This document shows, one piece after another, positions 19,705 through 30,689 of a stretch of DNA of 38,684 nt. Source of the DNA: a virus (lineage: Duplodnaviria; Caudoviricetes); IMG/VR virus record IMGVR_UViG_3300027581_000017, positions 1 through 38,684 of that record; one strand, 5' to 3'. The position numbers were made by a program, and so were the translations under genes. A model generated the notes under the pieces. It was not told where the DNA came from. It worked only from the letters and a program-made list of their open reading frames with translations, and did no database searches. How positions within the stretch are numbered: the stretch's first letter is position 1; each line of letters opens with the position of its first letter.

Positions 19705-20133
19705 ATGAATAACAAGCAGATAGCGGAACTATTAAAGGATTCTGTACAGAATGGCGATATTGATTCAATCTGGTTTGGTATTGGAGAATTAGAGCGCGAT
19801 TATTCAGCAGATACAAGCAAGCAACCTAGTTGCGCGGATAGAATTAAAGAGTCACTAGATTCACTCAATGAAGACATAACCGCCCTAATGGATAATGATG
19901 AAAGTGATGATAATGATGACCCTGCCCTATCGGTGGACACTTATAAATTGGTTAATGTCTGCCTTTCATATGGTGGCCCTAGTTCGTATCTTGAGATCAA
20001 GGCTACAGAACACAATGAAATTCTAAGCGTTACTTATCGGTTCAGCGATTGGTTTGATACCGCTACCCTGCCCGTGTTTGAAAGCGATCCCGCTTACAAG
20101 TACGCGCAATATATTATGGAGGGGCAAGAATGA
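19705..20133 (+). CDS. First early protein, very acidic (142 aa)
   Basis: ATG 19705 preceded by GAGAGAGC; LSYGGPS and DWFD motifs; Asp/Glu rich. Confidence 0.8.
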   Translation: MNNKQIAELLKDSVQNGDIDSIWFGIGELERDYSADTSKQPSCADRIKESLDSLNEDITALMDNDESDDNDDPALSVDTYKLVNVCLSYGGPSSYLEIKATEHNEILSVTYRFSDWFDTATLPVFESDPAYKYAQYIMEGQE

Positions 20134-20276
20134 GAGTCATCAAGGGCGCGCTTATCGCGCTACTAGTCGCGGGGCTATTCGTAGCGGTCACGGGGCTAGT
20201 GTGGTGGGTACCCGCTACCCCTGAAAGGGGCGGGCATTATTGCTTAGGCACTATCGCCACCTGTTTTAACGGTTGA
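20130..20276 (+). CDS. Small membrane protein (48 aa)
   Basis: MRVIKGALIALLVAGLFVAVTGLVWWVP...CLGTIATCFNG; GGAGG RBS, ATGA overlap. Confidence 0.65.
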   Translation: MRVIKGALIALLVAGLFVAVTGLVWWVPATPERGGHYCLGTIATCFNG

Positions 20277-20327
20277 TCGCGTACCGTCGCGCATAGGTGA
20301 GAGTCTATGCGTGGCGGTCTGCTATCA
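20274..20327 (+). promoter_or_regulatory. Long intergenic RNA hairpin (possible RNase III-type processing site)
   Basis: ACCGTCGCGCATAG/CTATGCGTGGCGGT 14-bp stem with G:U pairs, plus a lower stem across an internal loop. Confidence 0.55.
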
Positions 20328-20376
20328 GGCAGACCCTAGCCCGCGAGCGCGGGAGAGGGTGAGAGAGAGGGCAAGA

Positions 20377-20988
20377 ATGGACACAATAGAGAGAACTAGT
20401 ACCGCTATAACCGTGAAATTAGGCGGTTTATTGGAACTATTAGAGGGCGCGAGCACTCACGCTCATAAGGATAGTGACCTGCGGGCGCTTAACGCGGTTA
20501 AAATAGAGGGCGATAGTGAGAGCCTAACCGCTACCGCTACCGATAGATATCGCCTAATTACGGGCAAGATAGAGGGAGAGGGTAACCTACCCGTTAGCTT
20601 GATCTCGCTTACCGATATTAAGCGCCTAATATCACTACTCAAGGGAGAGGGCAAGAGAATGGAATCCTTATCTGTAACGCTCTCACGCGTGGCAGATATT
20701 CTAAGCGTATCGGTACGCGGTAACGCGATAAGCGTAACCCTGCTAGACGCTAACTTTCCCGATAGCGAACACTTATTCGCTCAATTCGATAACCCTAGCC
20801 CTAGTGAAATAGGCGCTATTGACACGGTATCGTTTAACCCTGCCCTATTCGCAGATTATGCGAAGATAATTGGCAAGAGTAATGGAATTAAGGTGACCTT
20901 TATTGCTAAGGGTAAGCCTATGCTTATCGGGCTAGCAGGCGATAAGGTGGCGTGGCGCGCCCTGCTTATGCCTATGCGTATCATCTAA
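20377..20988 (+). CDS. Truncated DNA polymerase III beta-clamp (DnaN)-like protein, 203 aa
   Basis: L.AV.I......LTATATDRYRL, L.DANFPD, VSFNP.L, KPMLI and terminal LLMPMR match DnaN domains II-III; ATG 20377 follows GAGAGAGAGGGC. Confidence 0.75.
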   Translation: MDTIERTSTAITVKLGGLLELLEGASTHAHKDSDLRALNAVKIEGDSESLTATATDRYRLITGKIEGEGNLPVSLISLTDIKRLISLLKGEGKRMESLSVTLSRVADILSVSVRGNAISVTLLDANFPDSEHLFAQFDNPSPSEIGAIDTVSFNPALFADYAKIIGKSNGIKVTFIAKGKPMLIGLAGDKVAWRALLMPMRII

Positions 20989-21016
20989 TACGGTATAGTC
21001 ACCTATCGGTAGGCTA

Positions 21017-21055
21017 TCTATCCTCCCTTGCTTAGGTAGAGCAGGGGAGGGTGGA
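21017..21055 (+). promoter_or_regulatory. Long intergenic RNA hairpin (16-bp stem)
   Basis: TCTATCCTCCCTTGCT/AGCAGGGGAGGGTGGA fully paired with three G:U pairs; no U-tract. Confidence 0.55.
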
Positions 21056-21094
21056 GGGCATATCGCCCTAATTAGAGAGAGAGTGAGAGAGCTA

Positions 21095-21250
21095 ATGAAT
21101 ATAGAGAGAGTGCGCCATAGTGGCGCTTATGTAATCTCCGATTCTATTGGAGAGGGCGCGGGAGAATATCTATTTACCCGCACCTATTACGGTTACACGC
21201 TAAAGCAGGCTAAGGCACTATTCAAGCTAGCGGTAGAGAGAGAGGGCTAA
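21095..21250 (+). CDS. Small early protein (51 aa)
   Basis: MNIERVRHSGAYVISD...TRTYYGYTLKQAKALF; GAGAGAGC leader. Confidence 0.7.
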   Translation: MNIERVRHSGAYVISDSIGEGAGEYLFTRTYYGYTLKQAKALFKLAVEREG

Positions 21251-21450
21251 TGATGAAAGATTACAAGGTTTATTACAGGGAAGAAGATTCTGGCGTATTT
21301 ATATTTCAAGCAGAATCGCTAGATCAAGCTAATGAATTACTTAATAAAGTAAAAGAGGGCGATCTTTACTTAGATGAATTGCCTAATTACTACCGTAAGA
21401 ATAAGAGTTTTGATTCTGACCTGTCCGATATTATAGAGGTGACTCAATGA
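21250..21450 (+). CDS. Small acidic early protein
   Basis: 66 aa, TAATG coupling, GAGAGAGGGC leader. Confidence 0.75.
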   Translation: MMKDYKVYYREEDSGVFIFQAESLDQANELLNKVKEGDLYLDELPNYYRKNKSFDSDLSDIIEVTQ

Positions 21451-21797
21451 GTACCTGTTATGTATGCAAGAGCTGCTTGAATGAGCAAGAATTATATAAC
21501 GCGGTAGTATCTACGCCCGCTAATGAGTACAAGACCGTGAGTAGCTGCTTTGATTGCAGGACAGGGCTAGATGAGTACACTATCAATGAGATAGAGGTGC
21601 TCACCCTATTGGATAGTCAAGAGTCATACTCTAATCGTGTAGAGAGAGAGGGCGCTTACGCTGCTACTACCATAGAGTTAATTACAGGCATACTGGCGTT
21701 AGACCCAGAAAATGATGAAGAATATAACGATTATGCCCTAGTGGATATGATCGAATTGGCGATTAGTTATCACCGCAACCATAAGGATAAGGATTAA
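21447..21797 (+). CDS. Early acidic protein with Cys zinc-binding motifs
   Basis: CxxCxxC...CxxC, 116 aa. Confidence 0.75.
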   Translation: MSTCYVCKSCLNEQELYNAVVSTPANEYKTVSSCFDCRTGLDEYTINEIEVLTLLDSQESYSNRVEREGAYAATTIELITGILALDPENDEEYNDYALVDMIELAISYHRNHKDKD

Positions 21798-21799
21798 CT

Positions 21800-21976
21800 A
21801 TGAGCGCACCTAATAAAGAATACTTAATCGCTAAGGCTACGCTATGCCGTGACCTAGCTATCGAGCAAATGAAAGAGGGTGAGGGCGAGCAAGCTACCCG
21901 CAACCTTATGCGTATGGTCAAGGCGTTAGGCGAAGTCGGAATAATAATCGAGAGAGAGGGCAAGGATAATGAGTAA
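21800..21976 (+). CDS. Small early protein (58 aa)
   Basis: MSAPNKEYLIAKATLCRDLA...EREGKDNE; AAGGA RBS. Confidence 0.65.
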   Translation: MSAPNKEYLIAKATLCRDLAIEQMKEGEGEQATRNLMRMVKALGEVGIIIEREGKDNE

Positions 21977-22084
21977 AGTAATAATTGAAGTATCTGGTGG
22001 CGTAGCTTATTTAGTGAACGCGCCAGAAGGCATAGAAGTAGAGATAAGAGATTGGGATAATGAGAGAGAGGGCAAGGATAATGA
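21950..22084 (+). repeat. 23-nt perfect direct repeat GAGAGAGAGGGCAAGGATAATGA (21950-21972 and 22062-22084)
   Basis: Identical leader-plus-start sequences flanking a 39-aa gene. Confidence 0.9.
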
Positions 22085-22088
22085 ATAG
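21969..22088 (+). CDS. Small early protein (39 aa)
   Basis: MSKVIIEVSGGVAYLVNAPEGIEVEIRDWDNEREGKDNE. Confidence 0.65.
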   Translation: MSKVIIEVSGGVAYLVNAPEGIEVEIRDWDNEREGKDNE

Positions 22089-22236
22089 CACTTGTAAGGT
22101 TTGCTTAGATGATTTTGATGATGAAAGTATGATTGAGGATATACAAGGGGCGAAGTATTGCCTATTCGATAGTGGTGCTATCTGCCCTGTCTGTGGTATC
22201 TATGAGCACGATTGCGAGGGAGAGAGCAATGATTAA
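22081..22236 (+). CDS. Small zinc-finger-like early protein (51 aa)
   Basis: CKVC...C...CPVC...HDC. Confidence 0.65.
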   Translation: MNSTCKVCLDDFDDESMIEDIQGAKYCLFDSGAICPVCGIYEHDCEGESND

Positions 22237-22405
22237 AGAGATAGAGCTAGAATATACCGCCAATAATCTTGTAAAGTTAGCACGCGAGGTATGGGGAGAT
22301 AACGCTACTGAGTACCTTGCGGGTAGATTAGAGAGTGTAATTACCTATAATCAAATGAAGGTTTTAATAGATAGCCTAAAGGGAGAGGCTGACAATGAAG
22401 ATTGA
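22229..22405 (+). CDS. Small early protein (58 aa)
   Basis: ATG 22229 after GAGAGAGC; MIKEIELEYTANNL... Confidence 0.7.
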   Translation: MIKEIELEYTANNLVKLAREVWGDNATEYLAGRLESVITYNQMKVLIDSLKGEADNED

Positions 22406-22532
22406 TAAGCAATTACTACAAGAGCAGATTAAGTTTTTATACTCTTATGCGTGGAGAGAGCAGGGTATCCCTGATGAAATCGTGGGAGTGATCAACCTAT
22501 TAGAAGCAATAGAGGAGGCTGATAATGAGTAG
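22395..22532 (+). CDS. Small early protein (45 aa)
   Basis: MKIDKQLLQEQIKFLYSYAWREQG...; GGGAGAGG leader. Confidence 0.6.
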   Translation: MKIDKQLLQEQIKFLYSYAWREQGIPDEIVGVINLLEAIEEADNE

Positions 22533-22761
22533 TTTTCACCCAAAGTACGATCTAATCAACCTCTATGAAATTGTAGGGGAAGCGGGCGAGGTGGAGTGGG
22601 CAGGCGAATCTGCCCACGAAGCCATTAAGTTACTACGCAGTAGCGCTAACAAGCGCCTGCTGGTATCAGGTTGGGAAAGTGATTACGAGGAAGCACGCCT
22701 AGTCGGGCAGCCTTTAGATGTAACGCAGGTAGCGTTAGCAGCAATAGTATGGGAGAGATAA
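22525..22761 (+). CDS. Hypothetical early protein
   Basis: 78 aa, GAGGAGG RBS. Confidence 0.75.
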   Translation: MSSFHPKYDLINLYEIVGEAGEVEWAGESAHEAIKLLRSSANKRLLVSGWESDYEEARLVGQPLDVTQVALAAIVWER

Positions 22762-22844
22762 TGAGTTACTTAATAGGGATCATAGCTGTATTAGTGATAG
22801 CCTACTTACTTATAGTGGGAGAGGATAAGTTAAATGAGCGTTGA
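22761..22844 (+). CDS. Tiny membrane peptide (27 aa)
   Basis: MSYLIGIIAVLVIAYLLIVGEDKLNER; TAATG coupling. Confidence 0.5.
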   Translation: MSYLIGIIAVLVIAYLLIVGEDKLNER

Positions 22845-23118
22845 GCGACGCATTGAAACCGCACTTAGACAAGCAGTTCATTACCGCAACTATCGTAGAG
22901 CGAGAGAGAGGGCGCTGGCCAAGCTCTCTCATTTATACCCCGACACTTACAAGCAACTGCTTGGGATTGAGAAGGCAATAGATGAGCAAGAGGGAAAGAA
23001 TTGGATTGATATTAGCGGTGCTACTCGTATGGTTACTAGTACCAGCACACCAGACTGGCATACTACCAACACCCAAGAAACCAGAGCTAGCACAAGCAAC
23101 GATGGAAGAGAAGCGTGA
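22834..23118 (+). CDS. Hypothetical protein, Arg-rich N-terminus
   Basis: 94 aa, GGGAGAGG leader. Confidence 0.65.
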   Translation: MSVERRIETALRQAVHYRNYRRARERALAKLSHLYPDTYKQLLGIEKAIDEQEGKNWIDISGATRMVTSTSTPDWHTTNTQETRASTSNDGREA

Positions 23119-23389
23119 AAACATACACGTATCCAAGCGTTACGCTTATCTCATACACGGGTGGGGGAGAGAGCAGCAAGCCTGCCTCGTCACCCTTTGG
23201 ACCCGTGAGAGTAGGTTTGACCACAAAGCGGACAATCCCAGATCTAGTGCTTACGGAATTGCTCAGCTACTTGGAGAAACAAAGCAAGATCCTAGAGAGC
23301 AGATTATCACTGGCCTTAAATACATTGAGCACCGATATAGCACCCCGTGTAACGCGCTTAGTTTCCACAACCGTAAGTACTGGTATTGA
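22982..23389 (+). CDS. Lytic transglycosylase (actinobacterial SLT-like) with N-terminal signal/anchor
   Basis: CL..LW.RES.F...A.NP.SSAYGIAQ.L...QI..GL.YI..RY..PC.A..F...WY. Confidence 0.88.
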   Translation: MSKRERIGLILAVLLVWLLVPAHQTGILPTPKKPELAQATMEEKRENIHVSKRYAYLIHGWGREQQACLVTLWTRESRFDHKADNPRSSAYGIAQLLGETKQDPREQIITGLKYIEHRYSTPCNALSFHNRKYWY

Positions 23390-23394
23390 TACTG

Positions 23395-23403
23395 TGGTAG
23401 AGT
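23395..23403 (+). promoter_or_regulatory. Extended -10 promoter for the putative sRNA
   Basis: TG-G-TAGAGT (TGnTAnnnT) just after the SLT stop codon. Confidence 0.5.
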
Positions 23404-23409
23404 AATAAC

Positions 23410-23476
23410 TATTGAACGCTCTCTCGTTCATACCGACGAAGCCTCACCTAAGACGCAAGGTGGGGCTTTGTCATTT
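23410..23476 (+). ncRNA. Putative sRNA antisense to early-gene leaders
   Basis: Hairpin TGAACG-CTCTCT-CGTTCA followed by terminator hairpin; GCUCUCUC complements GAGAG(A/G)GC. Confidence 0.55.
23438..23476. terminator. Terminator hairpin at the convergence of early and replication arms
   Basis: GAAGCCTCACCT-AAGACGCA-AGGTGGGGCTTT then GTCATTT. Confidence 0.7.
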
Positions 23477-23650
23477 CTTGTAGTCGGTAGAGTAGAAGCC
23501 AGCACCATTGAAGGTGACAGGGGGCGACGACCAGACACGGTTCATAGTTGTATGGCAGTTAAAGCACATAGGATCACTAGCTTCAGCGTGAATAGAACGC
23601 TCAATAGTTATCTGGCTGTTACACTTATCGCACTTGTAATCGTAGTTCAC
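23471..23650 (-). CDS. FmdB-family zinc-ribbon protein (59 aa, not in ORF track)
   Basis: YDYKCDKC...CFNC...MNRVWS...FNGAGFYSTD. Confidence 0.85.
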   Translation of the reverse strand: MNYDYKCDKCNSQITIERSIHAEASDPMCFNCHTTMNRVWSSPPVTFNGAGFYSTDYKK

Positions 23651-29510: not shown

Positions 29511-30068
29511 CTATAGCTTTTCTTGTACCACCAACTGTAAAGGCTTACCAGTATTAGAGTCAAGAACCGAAGCTATCTCAACAGCACGTCGGGCGTGTCG
29601 CTTAATGTAATCTAAGTCCATAATAGGTTTGCGGATTGAATACAAGTAGCCAAGAGCAAGCTGCCCACCACTACCAATACCATAAGTTCCGTGATCTGTT
29701 TGGAAAAAAGAGAGATCACAAGCAACACGAAAGATACTGCCGTTAAAAGCAAAGAGATAATCAAAGCCACCATCTTTATCCACCTTATTCCACTCGTAGT
29801 TGTTGTCATTAAACGCTGAGATGATACTAGGTATCACCTTGGCGCCCATATAAGTTACTGGATTCTCACCGCGATATGCCGGTGGTTTCCAATTGTAGGT
29901 TAGTATATCTCCTGGGCGTATATCGCCGGAAATGCCTATTAGAAACTTCCCCACCTCGACGATCTTGGGTGTACTAGTCGAGTTACTTATTAGGTTATCT
30001 TCTGTGATCTGCGAGTCAGCGCAGAGCACGGCGTAATAGTCCGTCTGGATAGCTGAGATCGTAGTCAT
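29511..30068 (-). CDS. Proteasome-beta/HslV-like Ntn-hydrolase peptidase
   Basis: N-terminal MTT, ADSQ, KI, GISG, IGSGG..ALG, D..TG. Confidence 0.8.
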   Translation of the reverse strand: MTTISAIQTDYYAVLCADSQITEDNLISNSTSTPKIVEVGKFLIGISGDIRPGDILTYNWKPPAYRGENPVTYMGAKVIPSIISAFNDNNYEWNKVDKDGGFDYLFAFNGSIFRVACDLSFFQTDHGTYGIGSGGQLALGYLYSIRKPIMDLDYIKRHARRAVEIASVLDSNTGKPLQLVVQEKL

Positions 30069-30137
30069 AAAAGAATCTTACTAGAGTATCGGCGTGTCTT
30101 ACCAGAGACACGCTACTGGATTGCTACAATATGAGCC
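30069..30137. promoter_or_regulatory. Symmetric divergent promoter pair GACAC-N13-TAnnAT
   Basis: Plus: GACAC 30107-30111, TG.TACAAT 30125-30130. Minus: GACAC 30098-30094, TAAGAT 30080-30075. Confidence 0.65.
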
Positions 30138-30431
30138 GTGAGGCGAATTAAACAGGGTGAGCGCCCCCTTGAGGGGCGCGATAGGGGTACTGTACGGCTA
30201 CTGCGCTGGCTCCGTCTACCAACCCTGTCAAGAAACAAAGACACCTTACCACCGATATTTGGTAGCGACCTTCGGGAGCTGGGACCAGTACACGTCTGTC
30301 CTTGTGGCTCCCAAGTCTTTAGCGTTATGTGTGCCTTTGAAGACCACGAGATTGTCTGGTATTTCCTTGACGCTGTTTGCGTTAGCTGTGGCAACTTAGT
30401 TACTGTGCCTTGCCCAGTAGACGCAGAATAA
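30138..30431 (+). CDS. Zinc-ribbon protein
   Basis: VCPCGS...CVSCG; lone plus-strand gene; start uncertain. Confidence 0.7.
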   Translation: MRRIKQGERPLEGRDRGTVRLLRWLRLPTLSRNKDTLPPIFGSDLRELGPVHVCPCGSQVFSVMCAFEDHEIVWYFLDAVCVSCGNLVTVPCPVDAE

Positions 30432-30439
30432 AACGGCAT

Positions 30440-30480
30440 AAAAAAAGAACCCCCCACCCCGTAGGGTGGAGGGCCTTTTG
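30440..30480. terminator. Bidirectional intrinsic terminator
   Basis: A-tract, CCCCCACCC-CGTA-GGGTGGAGGG stem, CTTTT; between converging genes. Confidence 0.8.
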
Positions 30481-30497
30481 CCTCGCGTTGCTATGGG

Positions 30498-30689
30498 TTA
30501 CTTAGACCCACGACCAAACTCTGTGGCATTTGGATCCAATGCTTTTAGTAGTGGACCTGCAATAGCAGCAATACCTGCTGTTGCTAGAGCTTTAGGGTCT
30601 GTCACACCCGCAAGGTACAGGGCGATTATTGATGCAACTCCGGCACGTAGGTACGTGGCAGCCATTGCTTTTAACTTGTTCTTATCCAT
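30498..30689 (-). CDS. Holin
   Basis: 63 aa, two hydrophobic helices, follows endolysin. Confidence 0.75.
   Translation of the reverse strand: MDKNKLKAMAATYLRAGVASIIALYLAGVTDPKALATAGIAAIAGPLLKALDPNATEFGRGSK

Follow-up and report, generated by a model that had tools for sequence, protein, structure and literature searches.

A phage element whose CU-rich hairpin loop mirrors the ribosome binding sites (RBSs) of the phage's own early genes lies at the junction where the early and middle genes of a group of phages converge. Sequence comparison confirmed that this element is real, conserved and co-evolving with its predicted targets, and a repressive function is likely. The reading that we favor, at a probability of roughly two in three, is that the element encodes a phage small RNA whose CU loop, complementary to the Shine-Dalgarno (SD) regions of the early genes, would base-pair with them, keep ribosomes from loading and so end early translation as the infection proceeds. 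In lytic phages, the switch from early to late genes is generally credited to proteins that act on transcription. If our reading is correct, silencing of an entire and rapidly changing early gene set by one phage RNA, by means of an RBS code that these genes share, would represent a new layer of control. It would also explain the over-conserved RBS motifs of actinophage early genes, a question that was open in 2025 according to the accessible text of a recent report (PMC12699233).

Genomic setting and anatomy of the element

The window, meaning the whole stretch of 38,684 nucleotides analyzed here, is a near-complete virus record encoding terminase, capsid, primase, helicase, a sigma-like protein and WhiB. 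Nearly all genes lie on the - strand; the exception is a + strand cluster of 15 mostly small genes (19705-23389), called early here from gene size, content and position. Among described phages, the best matches of the terminase are the Planktophila phages E7/F5 (46% identical) and the Streptomyces cluster BF phages (42%). Because of this kinship and the presence of WhiB, the host is likely actinobacterial, and the group has relatives among the first phages cultured on the most abundant bacteria of fresh water. A search of genome contigs for the host of the window phage returned only two small contigs, in bins of unrelated taxa.

The element consists of an extended -10, a CU-loop hairpin and a terminator, and is located between the last early gene and a convergent FmdB-like gene, the stop codon of which is overlapped by the terminator stem (Table 1). 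The U tail is modest. The element folds at -32.2 kcal/mol (z -7.0), a stability equaled by none of 200 shuffles, and the - strand at -25.6 kcal/mol. The coordinates that the first-pass annotation had assigned to the -10, the first hairpin, the seed and ten leaders all held on re-checking; the terminator hairpin, which it placed at 23438-23469, is present, but its stem extends further.

Several other non-coding features were observed in the window. Runs of short repeats (ACCC/AACC-rich) at 19380-19560, 5' of the early promoter, possibly lie near a genome end or origin. In the non-coding head of the middle operon (30068-30498), several hairpins accompany a strong terminator, and a divergent TG-TAnnnT lies at 30122. 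The strongest leaders, those of genes 20377 and 21095, follow long hairpins of very high stability (20270-20360 and 20994-21070), and comparable hairpins occur between the early genes of relatives and of BF phages; these are possible sites of RNase III-type processing, at which the early mRNA would be divided into cassettes.

Table 1. Coordinates of the candidate RNA element, its neighbors and the matching early leaders in the window.
Feature	Position	Strand	Remarks
Likely early promoter TTGCTT-18-CATAAT	19624-19653	+	read from the sequence; under the promoter-scan threshold
Leader GAGAGAGC, gene 19705	19696-19703	+	-11.2 kcal/mol
Leader GAGAGGGC, gene 20377 (clamp-like)	20365-20372	+	
Leader GAGAGAGC, gene 21095	21085-21092	+	
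Leader GAGAGGGC, gene 21250	21240-21247	+	
Leader GAGAGGGC, gene 21969	21954-21961	+	
Leader GAGAGGGC, gene 22081	22066-22073	+	
Leader GAGAGAGC, gene 22229	22220-22227	+	
Weaker leader GGGAGAG, gene 22395	22381-22387	+	-6.9 kcal/mol
Weaker leader GGGAGAG, gene 22761	22751-22757	+	
Weaker leader GGGAGAG, gene 22834	22817-22823	+	
Last early gene, transglycosylase (SLT)-like	22982-23389	+	own leader without pairing
Second TG-TAnnnT copy	23387-23395	+	overlaps the first
Extended -10 TGGTAGAGT (TGnTAnnnT)	23395-23403	+	no conserved -35
Predicted small RNA, ~62-69 nt	23410-23478	+	ends inferred from -10 and terminator
Hairpin 1, 6-bp stem, CUCUCU loop	23413-23430	+	stem covariation in relatives
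Seed GCUCUCUC (DNA GCTCTCTC)	23418-23425	+	loop plus closing pair; opening cost 1.6 kcal/mol
Terminator-like hairpin and tail	23435-23478	+	stem 23435-23472, 15 bp; also ends the early operon
FmdB-like zinc-ribbon gene	23471-23650	-	convergent; ends the middle operon

Early leaders of the window

Pairing was predicted with a purpose-built energy model that considers a contiguous helix and the opening cost of the RNA and ignores target structure. On this scale, 10 of the 15 early leaders of the window reach -6 kcal/mol or better and seven reach -10 or better, and among the 50 other called leaders two reach -6 and none -8. The early leaders without pairing at -6 kcal/mol or better are the five at genes 20130, 21447, 21800, 22525 and 22982. 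GAGAGAG occurs 20 times on the + strand, always within 19696-23167, where dinucleotide shuffles of the early region predict 1.1 copies (maximum 5 in 300 shuffles); on the - strand it is found only at the loop and at 22930. Six further strong sites lie inside early coding sequences (20643, 21150, 21642, 22454, 22902, and 23163). In the coding sequences of middle and late genes the seed is found 0 times against 2.1 expected (P 0.15) and GAGAG 4 times against 13 (P 0.007), a picture that is mixed across families. As a side observation, at 22897-22935, inside a 94-aa gene, family A alone has RARERAL for RARDRAL, where the pattern was found; the codons of RARERAL create a GAGAGAGGGC site, for which local pairing with GCTCTCTC at 22923-22930 is possible.

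The first-pass annotation had named a host 16S anti-SD matching GAGAGAG as a result that would speak against an RNA. The middle and late genes of the window carry ordinary AGGA/GGAG-type sites, and the host anti-SD is therefore not itself a GA repeat. Early leaders also pair better with a generic anti-SD motif (-6.1 vs. -4.5 for others), so part of the contrast between early and late genes reflects SD strength.

Conservation among relatives

Scans with three neighboring proteins yielded 162 loci, many of them overlapping, from which a conservation set of 133 oriented sequences was defined by a neighbor of at least 55% identity, the window included. A CU-loop hairpin is present where early and middle genes converge in 116 of the 133, representing 78 distinct junctions, although the loop anchors were picked by eye from the junctions, which favors CU-rich loops. 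The other 17 sequences comprise 14 that end before the junction, one with another arrangement (L072) and two that span the junction (L085 and L127). Relatives that keep GA leaders and have no CU-loop hairpin were foreseen by the first-pass annotation as counter-evidence. These last two are such relatives, as their GA-rich leaders are kept and hairpin 1 is absent, and they stand against the 116 in which the hairpin is found. Their terminator sits directly 3' of the last early gene (L085:6080-6140; L127:7350-7410, in window orientation), as in a natural loss, which makes them useful natural mutants.

The element is retained where methyltransferase-like or other genes are inserted after the SLT gene, and the -10 keeps its fixed spacing behind unrelated upstream genes. 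Of 70 distinct upstream sequences, 50 have TAnnnT 4-12 nt 5' of the hairpin (40 of them with TG), compared to 15 (5 with TG) at a control distance; the upstream consensus reads TGTGnTAnnnT and includes no -35. In a set of 50 representatives, the -10 is found in each of the 26 that belong to neither family D nor family L, in 8 of 23 in family D and in the one member of family L not at all (0/1). In 18 family-D hairpins both sides of the stem change in six of eight pairs and the loop is nearly fixed; 95% of the cells of the alignment are paired, and none of 500 shuffles scored as high. The + strand is the better folder in 60 of 69 distinct elements. Judged as an anti-SD sRNA, the element has a conserved structure with an accessible seed, and motifs for its own promoter and an intrinsic terminator are present in the window's family, whereas the -10 is missing in 15 of the 23 family-D phages.

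Matches to the 18-mer of the hairpin in metagenomes (n = 26, some possibly from the window's own source) have both -10 and terminator in 14 cases and neither in 12. None of the nine RNA runs considered contains half of the sequence words searched for; in the four that were compared with the window, RNA contigs with a depth of 3-5 cover two early genes and middle genes and not the element, although such contigs are unable to show a 65-nt RNA. Two-loop versions, with a second CU seed in the terminator loop, were observed in L019, L086-L089, L100, L114, L119, L155-L159, L071, and L015; the two loops of L019 match two different leader classes.

Co-variation of loops and leaders

Whether loop and leader change together in relatives was the check proposed in the first-pass annotation, and its outcome is positive. 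From 86 loci with at least eight early leaders, 50 non-redundant phages in 14 loop families were drawn. After removal of row and column effects, the own-family diagonal of the pairing matrix exceeded all 200,000 permutations (p 5e-6 by energy), a permutation that ignores kinship among families, of which A, B, and C are close. Middle and late leaders show no such co-variation (p 0.15). With exact 7-mer seeds the permutation gave p 1e-5 for early leaders, 0.004 for early coding sequences, 0.15 for other leaders and 0.26 for other coding sequences, at densities of 7.8, 0.57, 0.52, and 0.21 seeds per kb, respectively (leaders 7.8 and 0.52; coding sequences 0.57 and 0.21, early and other). Early leaders pair more strongly with the phage's own RNA than other leaders in 48 of 49 phages, and 214 of 229 strong duplexes end 0-10 nt 5' of the start codon (search window -22 to +3).

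The families are recognizable by their leaders. GAGAG[AG]GC occurs in 35% of 138 family-A leaders and in 0.0% of 678 other leaders, AAGGGGTA in 45% of 11 family-Q leaders and GAGAGTG in 31% of 16 family-N leaders. Matching loops and leaders include GCUCUCUCUUUCU with AGAAAGAGAGAGC (L005), UCUAACCCUUUC with GAAAGGGTTAGA (L074, with the natural pair UAACCCUUUC/GAAAGGGTTA), CACCCUUCC with GGAAGGGTG (L089), CACUCUC with GAGAGTG (L142) and UACCCCUU with AAGGGGTA (L019); in L118, a loop UAACCC shifted to UCACCC faces the leader AAGGGTGA. Several loops match their leaders via G:U pairs and not as exact copies (e.g., CCCUUUCC vs. GGAGAGGG in L019). On the tree of the neighboring middle gene the loop families are reshuffled, with 16 changes where the minimum is 13. 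Linkage may hold a loop and its leaders together, but alone it cannot make them complementary in many families.

Other results weaken the case. By raw energies, a phage's own RNA pairs better than the other families do on average in no more than 29 of the 50 phages, with a mean rank of 6.6 of 14, and the pairing matrix shows that loops cross-react widely across families. Families I and L are without specificity, and in M the pairing is weak. Matches to the genes at the end of the cluster are rare (last gene, 2 of 50). Family D, with 23 of the 50 phages, matches few leaders, mostly those at the heads of cassettes (23/65 vs. 15/245, in rows that are not independent). Control of most early genes, as originally suggested, fits the window's family and fails for family D, the largest, although pairing at cassette heads could still silence coupled downstream genes. 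In a blind scan restricted to transcribed strands, the element ranked first in 14 and among the top three in 28 of 50 phages, and third of 57 in the window; two earlier scans were set aside, one swamped by the opposite strand of the leaders themselves and one by U-rich non-transcribed strands (first in 7 of 50).

The asymmetry between G:U and A.C was also considered as evidence of pairing and rejected. It amounts to 0.188 vs. 0.106 for cognate loops and to 0.256 vs. 0.134 for non-cognate ones, and because the asymmetry is shared by non-cognate loops, the G:U argument carries no independent weight. The earlier argument that A/G variation opposite U residues supports RNA pairing is therefore not specific.

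Proposed mechanism and alternative explanations

In the proposed mechanism, an RNA of ~65 nt would be transcribed from the extended -10, which appears to be of the host type, and would then accumulate; in members lacking the promoter, the same hairpin may be released from the 3' end of the early mRNA. The loop would seed in trans on early SDs and block 30S loading, and repression is the expected outcome because anti-SD sRNAs work in this way. Timing might be set by the build-up of a stable RNA or by a boost from the phage sigma-like or WhiB protein. Genes would enter the regulon through an SD variant that still serves the ribosome yet matches the loop.

No free sRNA would be needed if the hairpin were simply the 3' end of the early mRNA folding back in cis on upstream ribosome sites, which is in line with its location at the 3' end of the early operon, with the lack of a local -10 in much of family D (15/23 phages) and with the hairpins of BF phages, in which neither -10 nor U tail is seen by eye. 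We consider this unlikely, as the -10 lies at constant spacing behind unrelated upstream genes, ten sites are beyond the reach of one loop per mRNA, and the long hairpins that separate early genes hint at cleavage of the mRNA. It is also quite unlikely that the pairing is real and mainly leads to something other than RBS blocking, either decay or termination of early mRNA or its stabilization or activation. The strong sites within early coding sequences of the window point in that direction, as do the 7 early coding-sequence sites compared to 1.6 in synonymous shuffles and the weak co-variation of such sites across families (p 0.004); site density is, however, 14 times higher in leaders than in early coding sequences, and the duplexes cover the SD, which in established sRNA biology represses initiation.

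Exclusion as the main role, in which the RNA of a resident phage silences the early genes of any superinfecting phage that shares the leader and thereby drives the diversification of loops and leaders, is compatible with early shut-off by a small RNA and as the main role improbable. Close relatives use at least 14 different loop-leader codes, whose distribution is reshuffled on the neighboring-gene tree; this and the precedent of C4 heteroimmunity in P1/P7, as described in the accessible part of the source (PMC5320573), argue for exclusion, and the wide cross-reaction of loops argues against it. That the leaders serve as sites for a protein or at the DNA level, with the hairpin as a - strand decoy with a GAGAGA loop or a by-product of local inverted copying, is highly improbable: the - strand loop does read as the leader motif and the G:U asymmetry does not discriminate, but the promoter is directed along the + strand, the terminator stem is mismatched on the - strand, the + strand folds better in 60 of 69 elements, and the loops that match through G:U are not exact copies. 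The chance is close to negligible that the hairpin is a generic anti-SD mimic directed against host mRNAs, or a chance structure beside a terminator, and that early leaders are merely strong SDs. Early leaders are indeed the stronger SDs, and CU-rich loops are common in sRNAs according to the available text of one report (PMC4615179), yet this leaves the family-specific matching confined to early leaders unexplained and is largely refuted by the permutation tests; host targets may be a side role.

Start-associated sequences and hairpins of cultured phages

The start-associated sequences (SAS) of cluster K mycobacteriophages are an over-conserved motif at the RBS position of non-structural genes only, for which an RNA or protein partner has been suggested; Pope et al. 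(2011) noted one reversed SAS per K1 phage and, in the accessible text, left RNA vs. protein binding open (PMC3203893). SAS-like motifs are described in the available part of a report on cluster EF Microbacterium phages (PMC7302621), and the function of SAS was called unverified in 2025 in the text accessible (PMC12699233). The window leaders are similarly over-conserved at the RBS position, in one orientation and at non-structural genes only. However, SAS have a 13-bp GGGATAGGAGCCC-type consensus and ESAS repeats, as far as the accessible descriptions go, and the window leaders are shorter GA runs (GAGAG[AG]GC) near which no such repeats were noticed.

In Adephagia the reversed SAS forms the loop of a strong intergenic hairpin 3' of the last SAS gene, between genes 92 and 93 (L171:48960-49013; JF704105, about 58660-58712), which, over the 50 kb covered, ranks best among the accessible anti-SAS sites. 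No anti-SAS loop was found in the ~50 kb covered of Pixie, TM4, and AnnaSerena, which begin after the first 11.2, 2.9, and 6.8 kb, respectively; Pixie and TM4 have other hairpins in the stretch matching that of Adephagia. In all five cluster BF Streptomyces phages covered, the early leaders are of the type CAAGGG(G)AGAGA, and directly 3' of the last gene with such a leader lies a hairpin with loop CUCUCUCCC. The BF stems differ among phages by eye, while the pair count is weak (29 of 500) in an alignment partly out of register. In Immanuel3, pairing at -8 or better is predicted for 8 of 11 early leaders and for 3 of the 51 others. The BF hairpins (L166:38420-38465, - strand; also L167-L170) were further seen to be conserved, 3' of the last early cassette and nested in an outer stem; unlike the element of the window, they have no visible -10 or terminator.

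E7/F5 are cultured Planktophila phages, and no mention of the element was noted in the accessible part of their description (PMC10202952). Together with their relatives they carry a long hairpin with compensating stems, the loop of which, CUCCUGUC, mirrors the early leader GACAGGAG. This hairpin heads the middle operon and matches 5 of 17 early and 5 of 49 other leaders; because of this position and because some middle leaders are matched, it may act in cis, and a pseudoknot or a leader-derived RNA is possible. The CUCCUGUC hairpin was observed directly 5' of the first middle gene (L165:32680-32742, - strand; L164, L176-L234), with the RBS of which it can pair. The E7/F5 and BF phages share the genome plan of the window and also have a shared early leader and a hairpin loop that mirrors it, and from their sequences the Adephagia, BF, and E7/F5 hairpins may be regarded as analogs of the window's element.

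We see about even odds for and against a wider hypothesis: that many unrelated actinophages tag their early genes with a private SD variant and read it with one RNA loop, an RNA-only off switch whose code diversifies between relatives, and that at least in certain phages (cluster K1, cluster BF, and the freshwater Nanopelagicales type) SAS serve as the addresses read by such RNAs. The natural swaps of loop and leader offer compensatory pairs that need no design, and analogs exist in cultured phages that grow on laboratory hosts, so that the RNA switch can be tested directly; the SAS question likewise becomes testable.

Comparison with known RNA systems

The element matched no Rfam family; at E values up to 5 only two chance hits were obtained, and no match to C4. 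Our searches found no published description of it, although supplements (SAS tables, lists of candidate phage RNAs) and most subscription papers could hold one. The phage sRNAs in the available parts of recent reports are of unknown function or target host RNAs (PMC11512511; bioRxiv 10.64898/2026.06.19.733364). In its predicted way of working the element resembles two known systems. The C4 antisense RNA of P1/P7 is, in the accessible text, a structured phage-encoded RNA of ~77 nt, with loops that bind phage mRNA by pairing and cover part of an RBS (PMC5320573). The element resembles it in a loop that lies over a phage RBS, here by predicted pairing, and in the joint variation of loop and target between related phages, here by sequence. 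However, C4 has three stem-loops, is processed by RNase P, serves lysogeny and immunity and controls one operon (PMC5320573, accessible text), whereas the element, with two hairpins and one or two loops, has a -10 of its own and fits the leaders of up to ten or more early genes. The Cuckoo/CcsR anti-SD sRNAs of Alphaproteobacteria are encoded on bacterial chromosomes and, as described in the part available, consist of two to four hairpins, each with CCUCCUCCC (PMC4615179); variable stems and a CU-rich, anti-SD-like loop are common to them and the element. The element lacks the two to four CCUCCUCCC hairpins, and its loop differs from one phage family to another, in step with the leaders of the phage itself. 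In comparison with these systems, the element is likely an anti-RBS base-pairing RNA of novel form that likely represses early translation.
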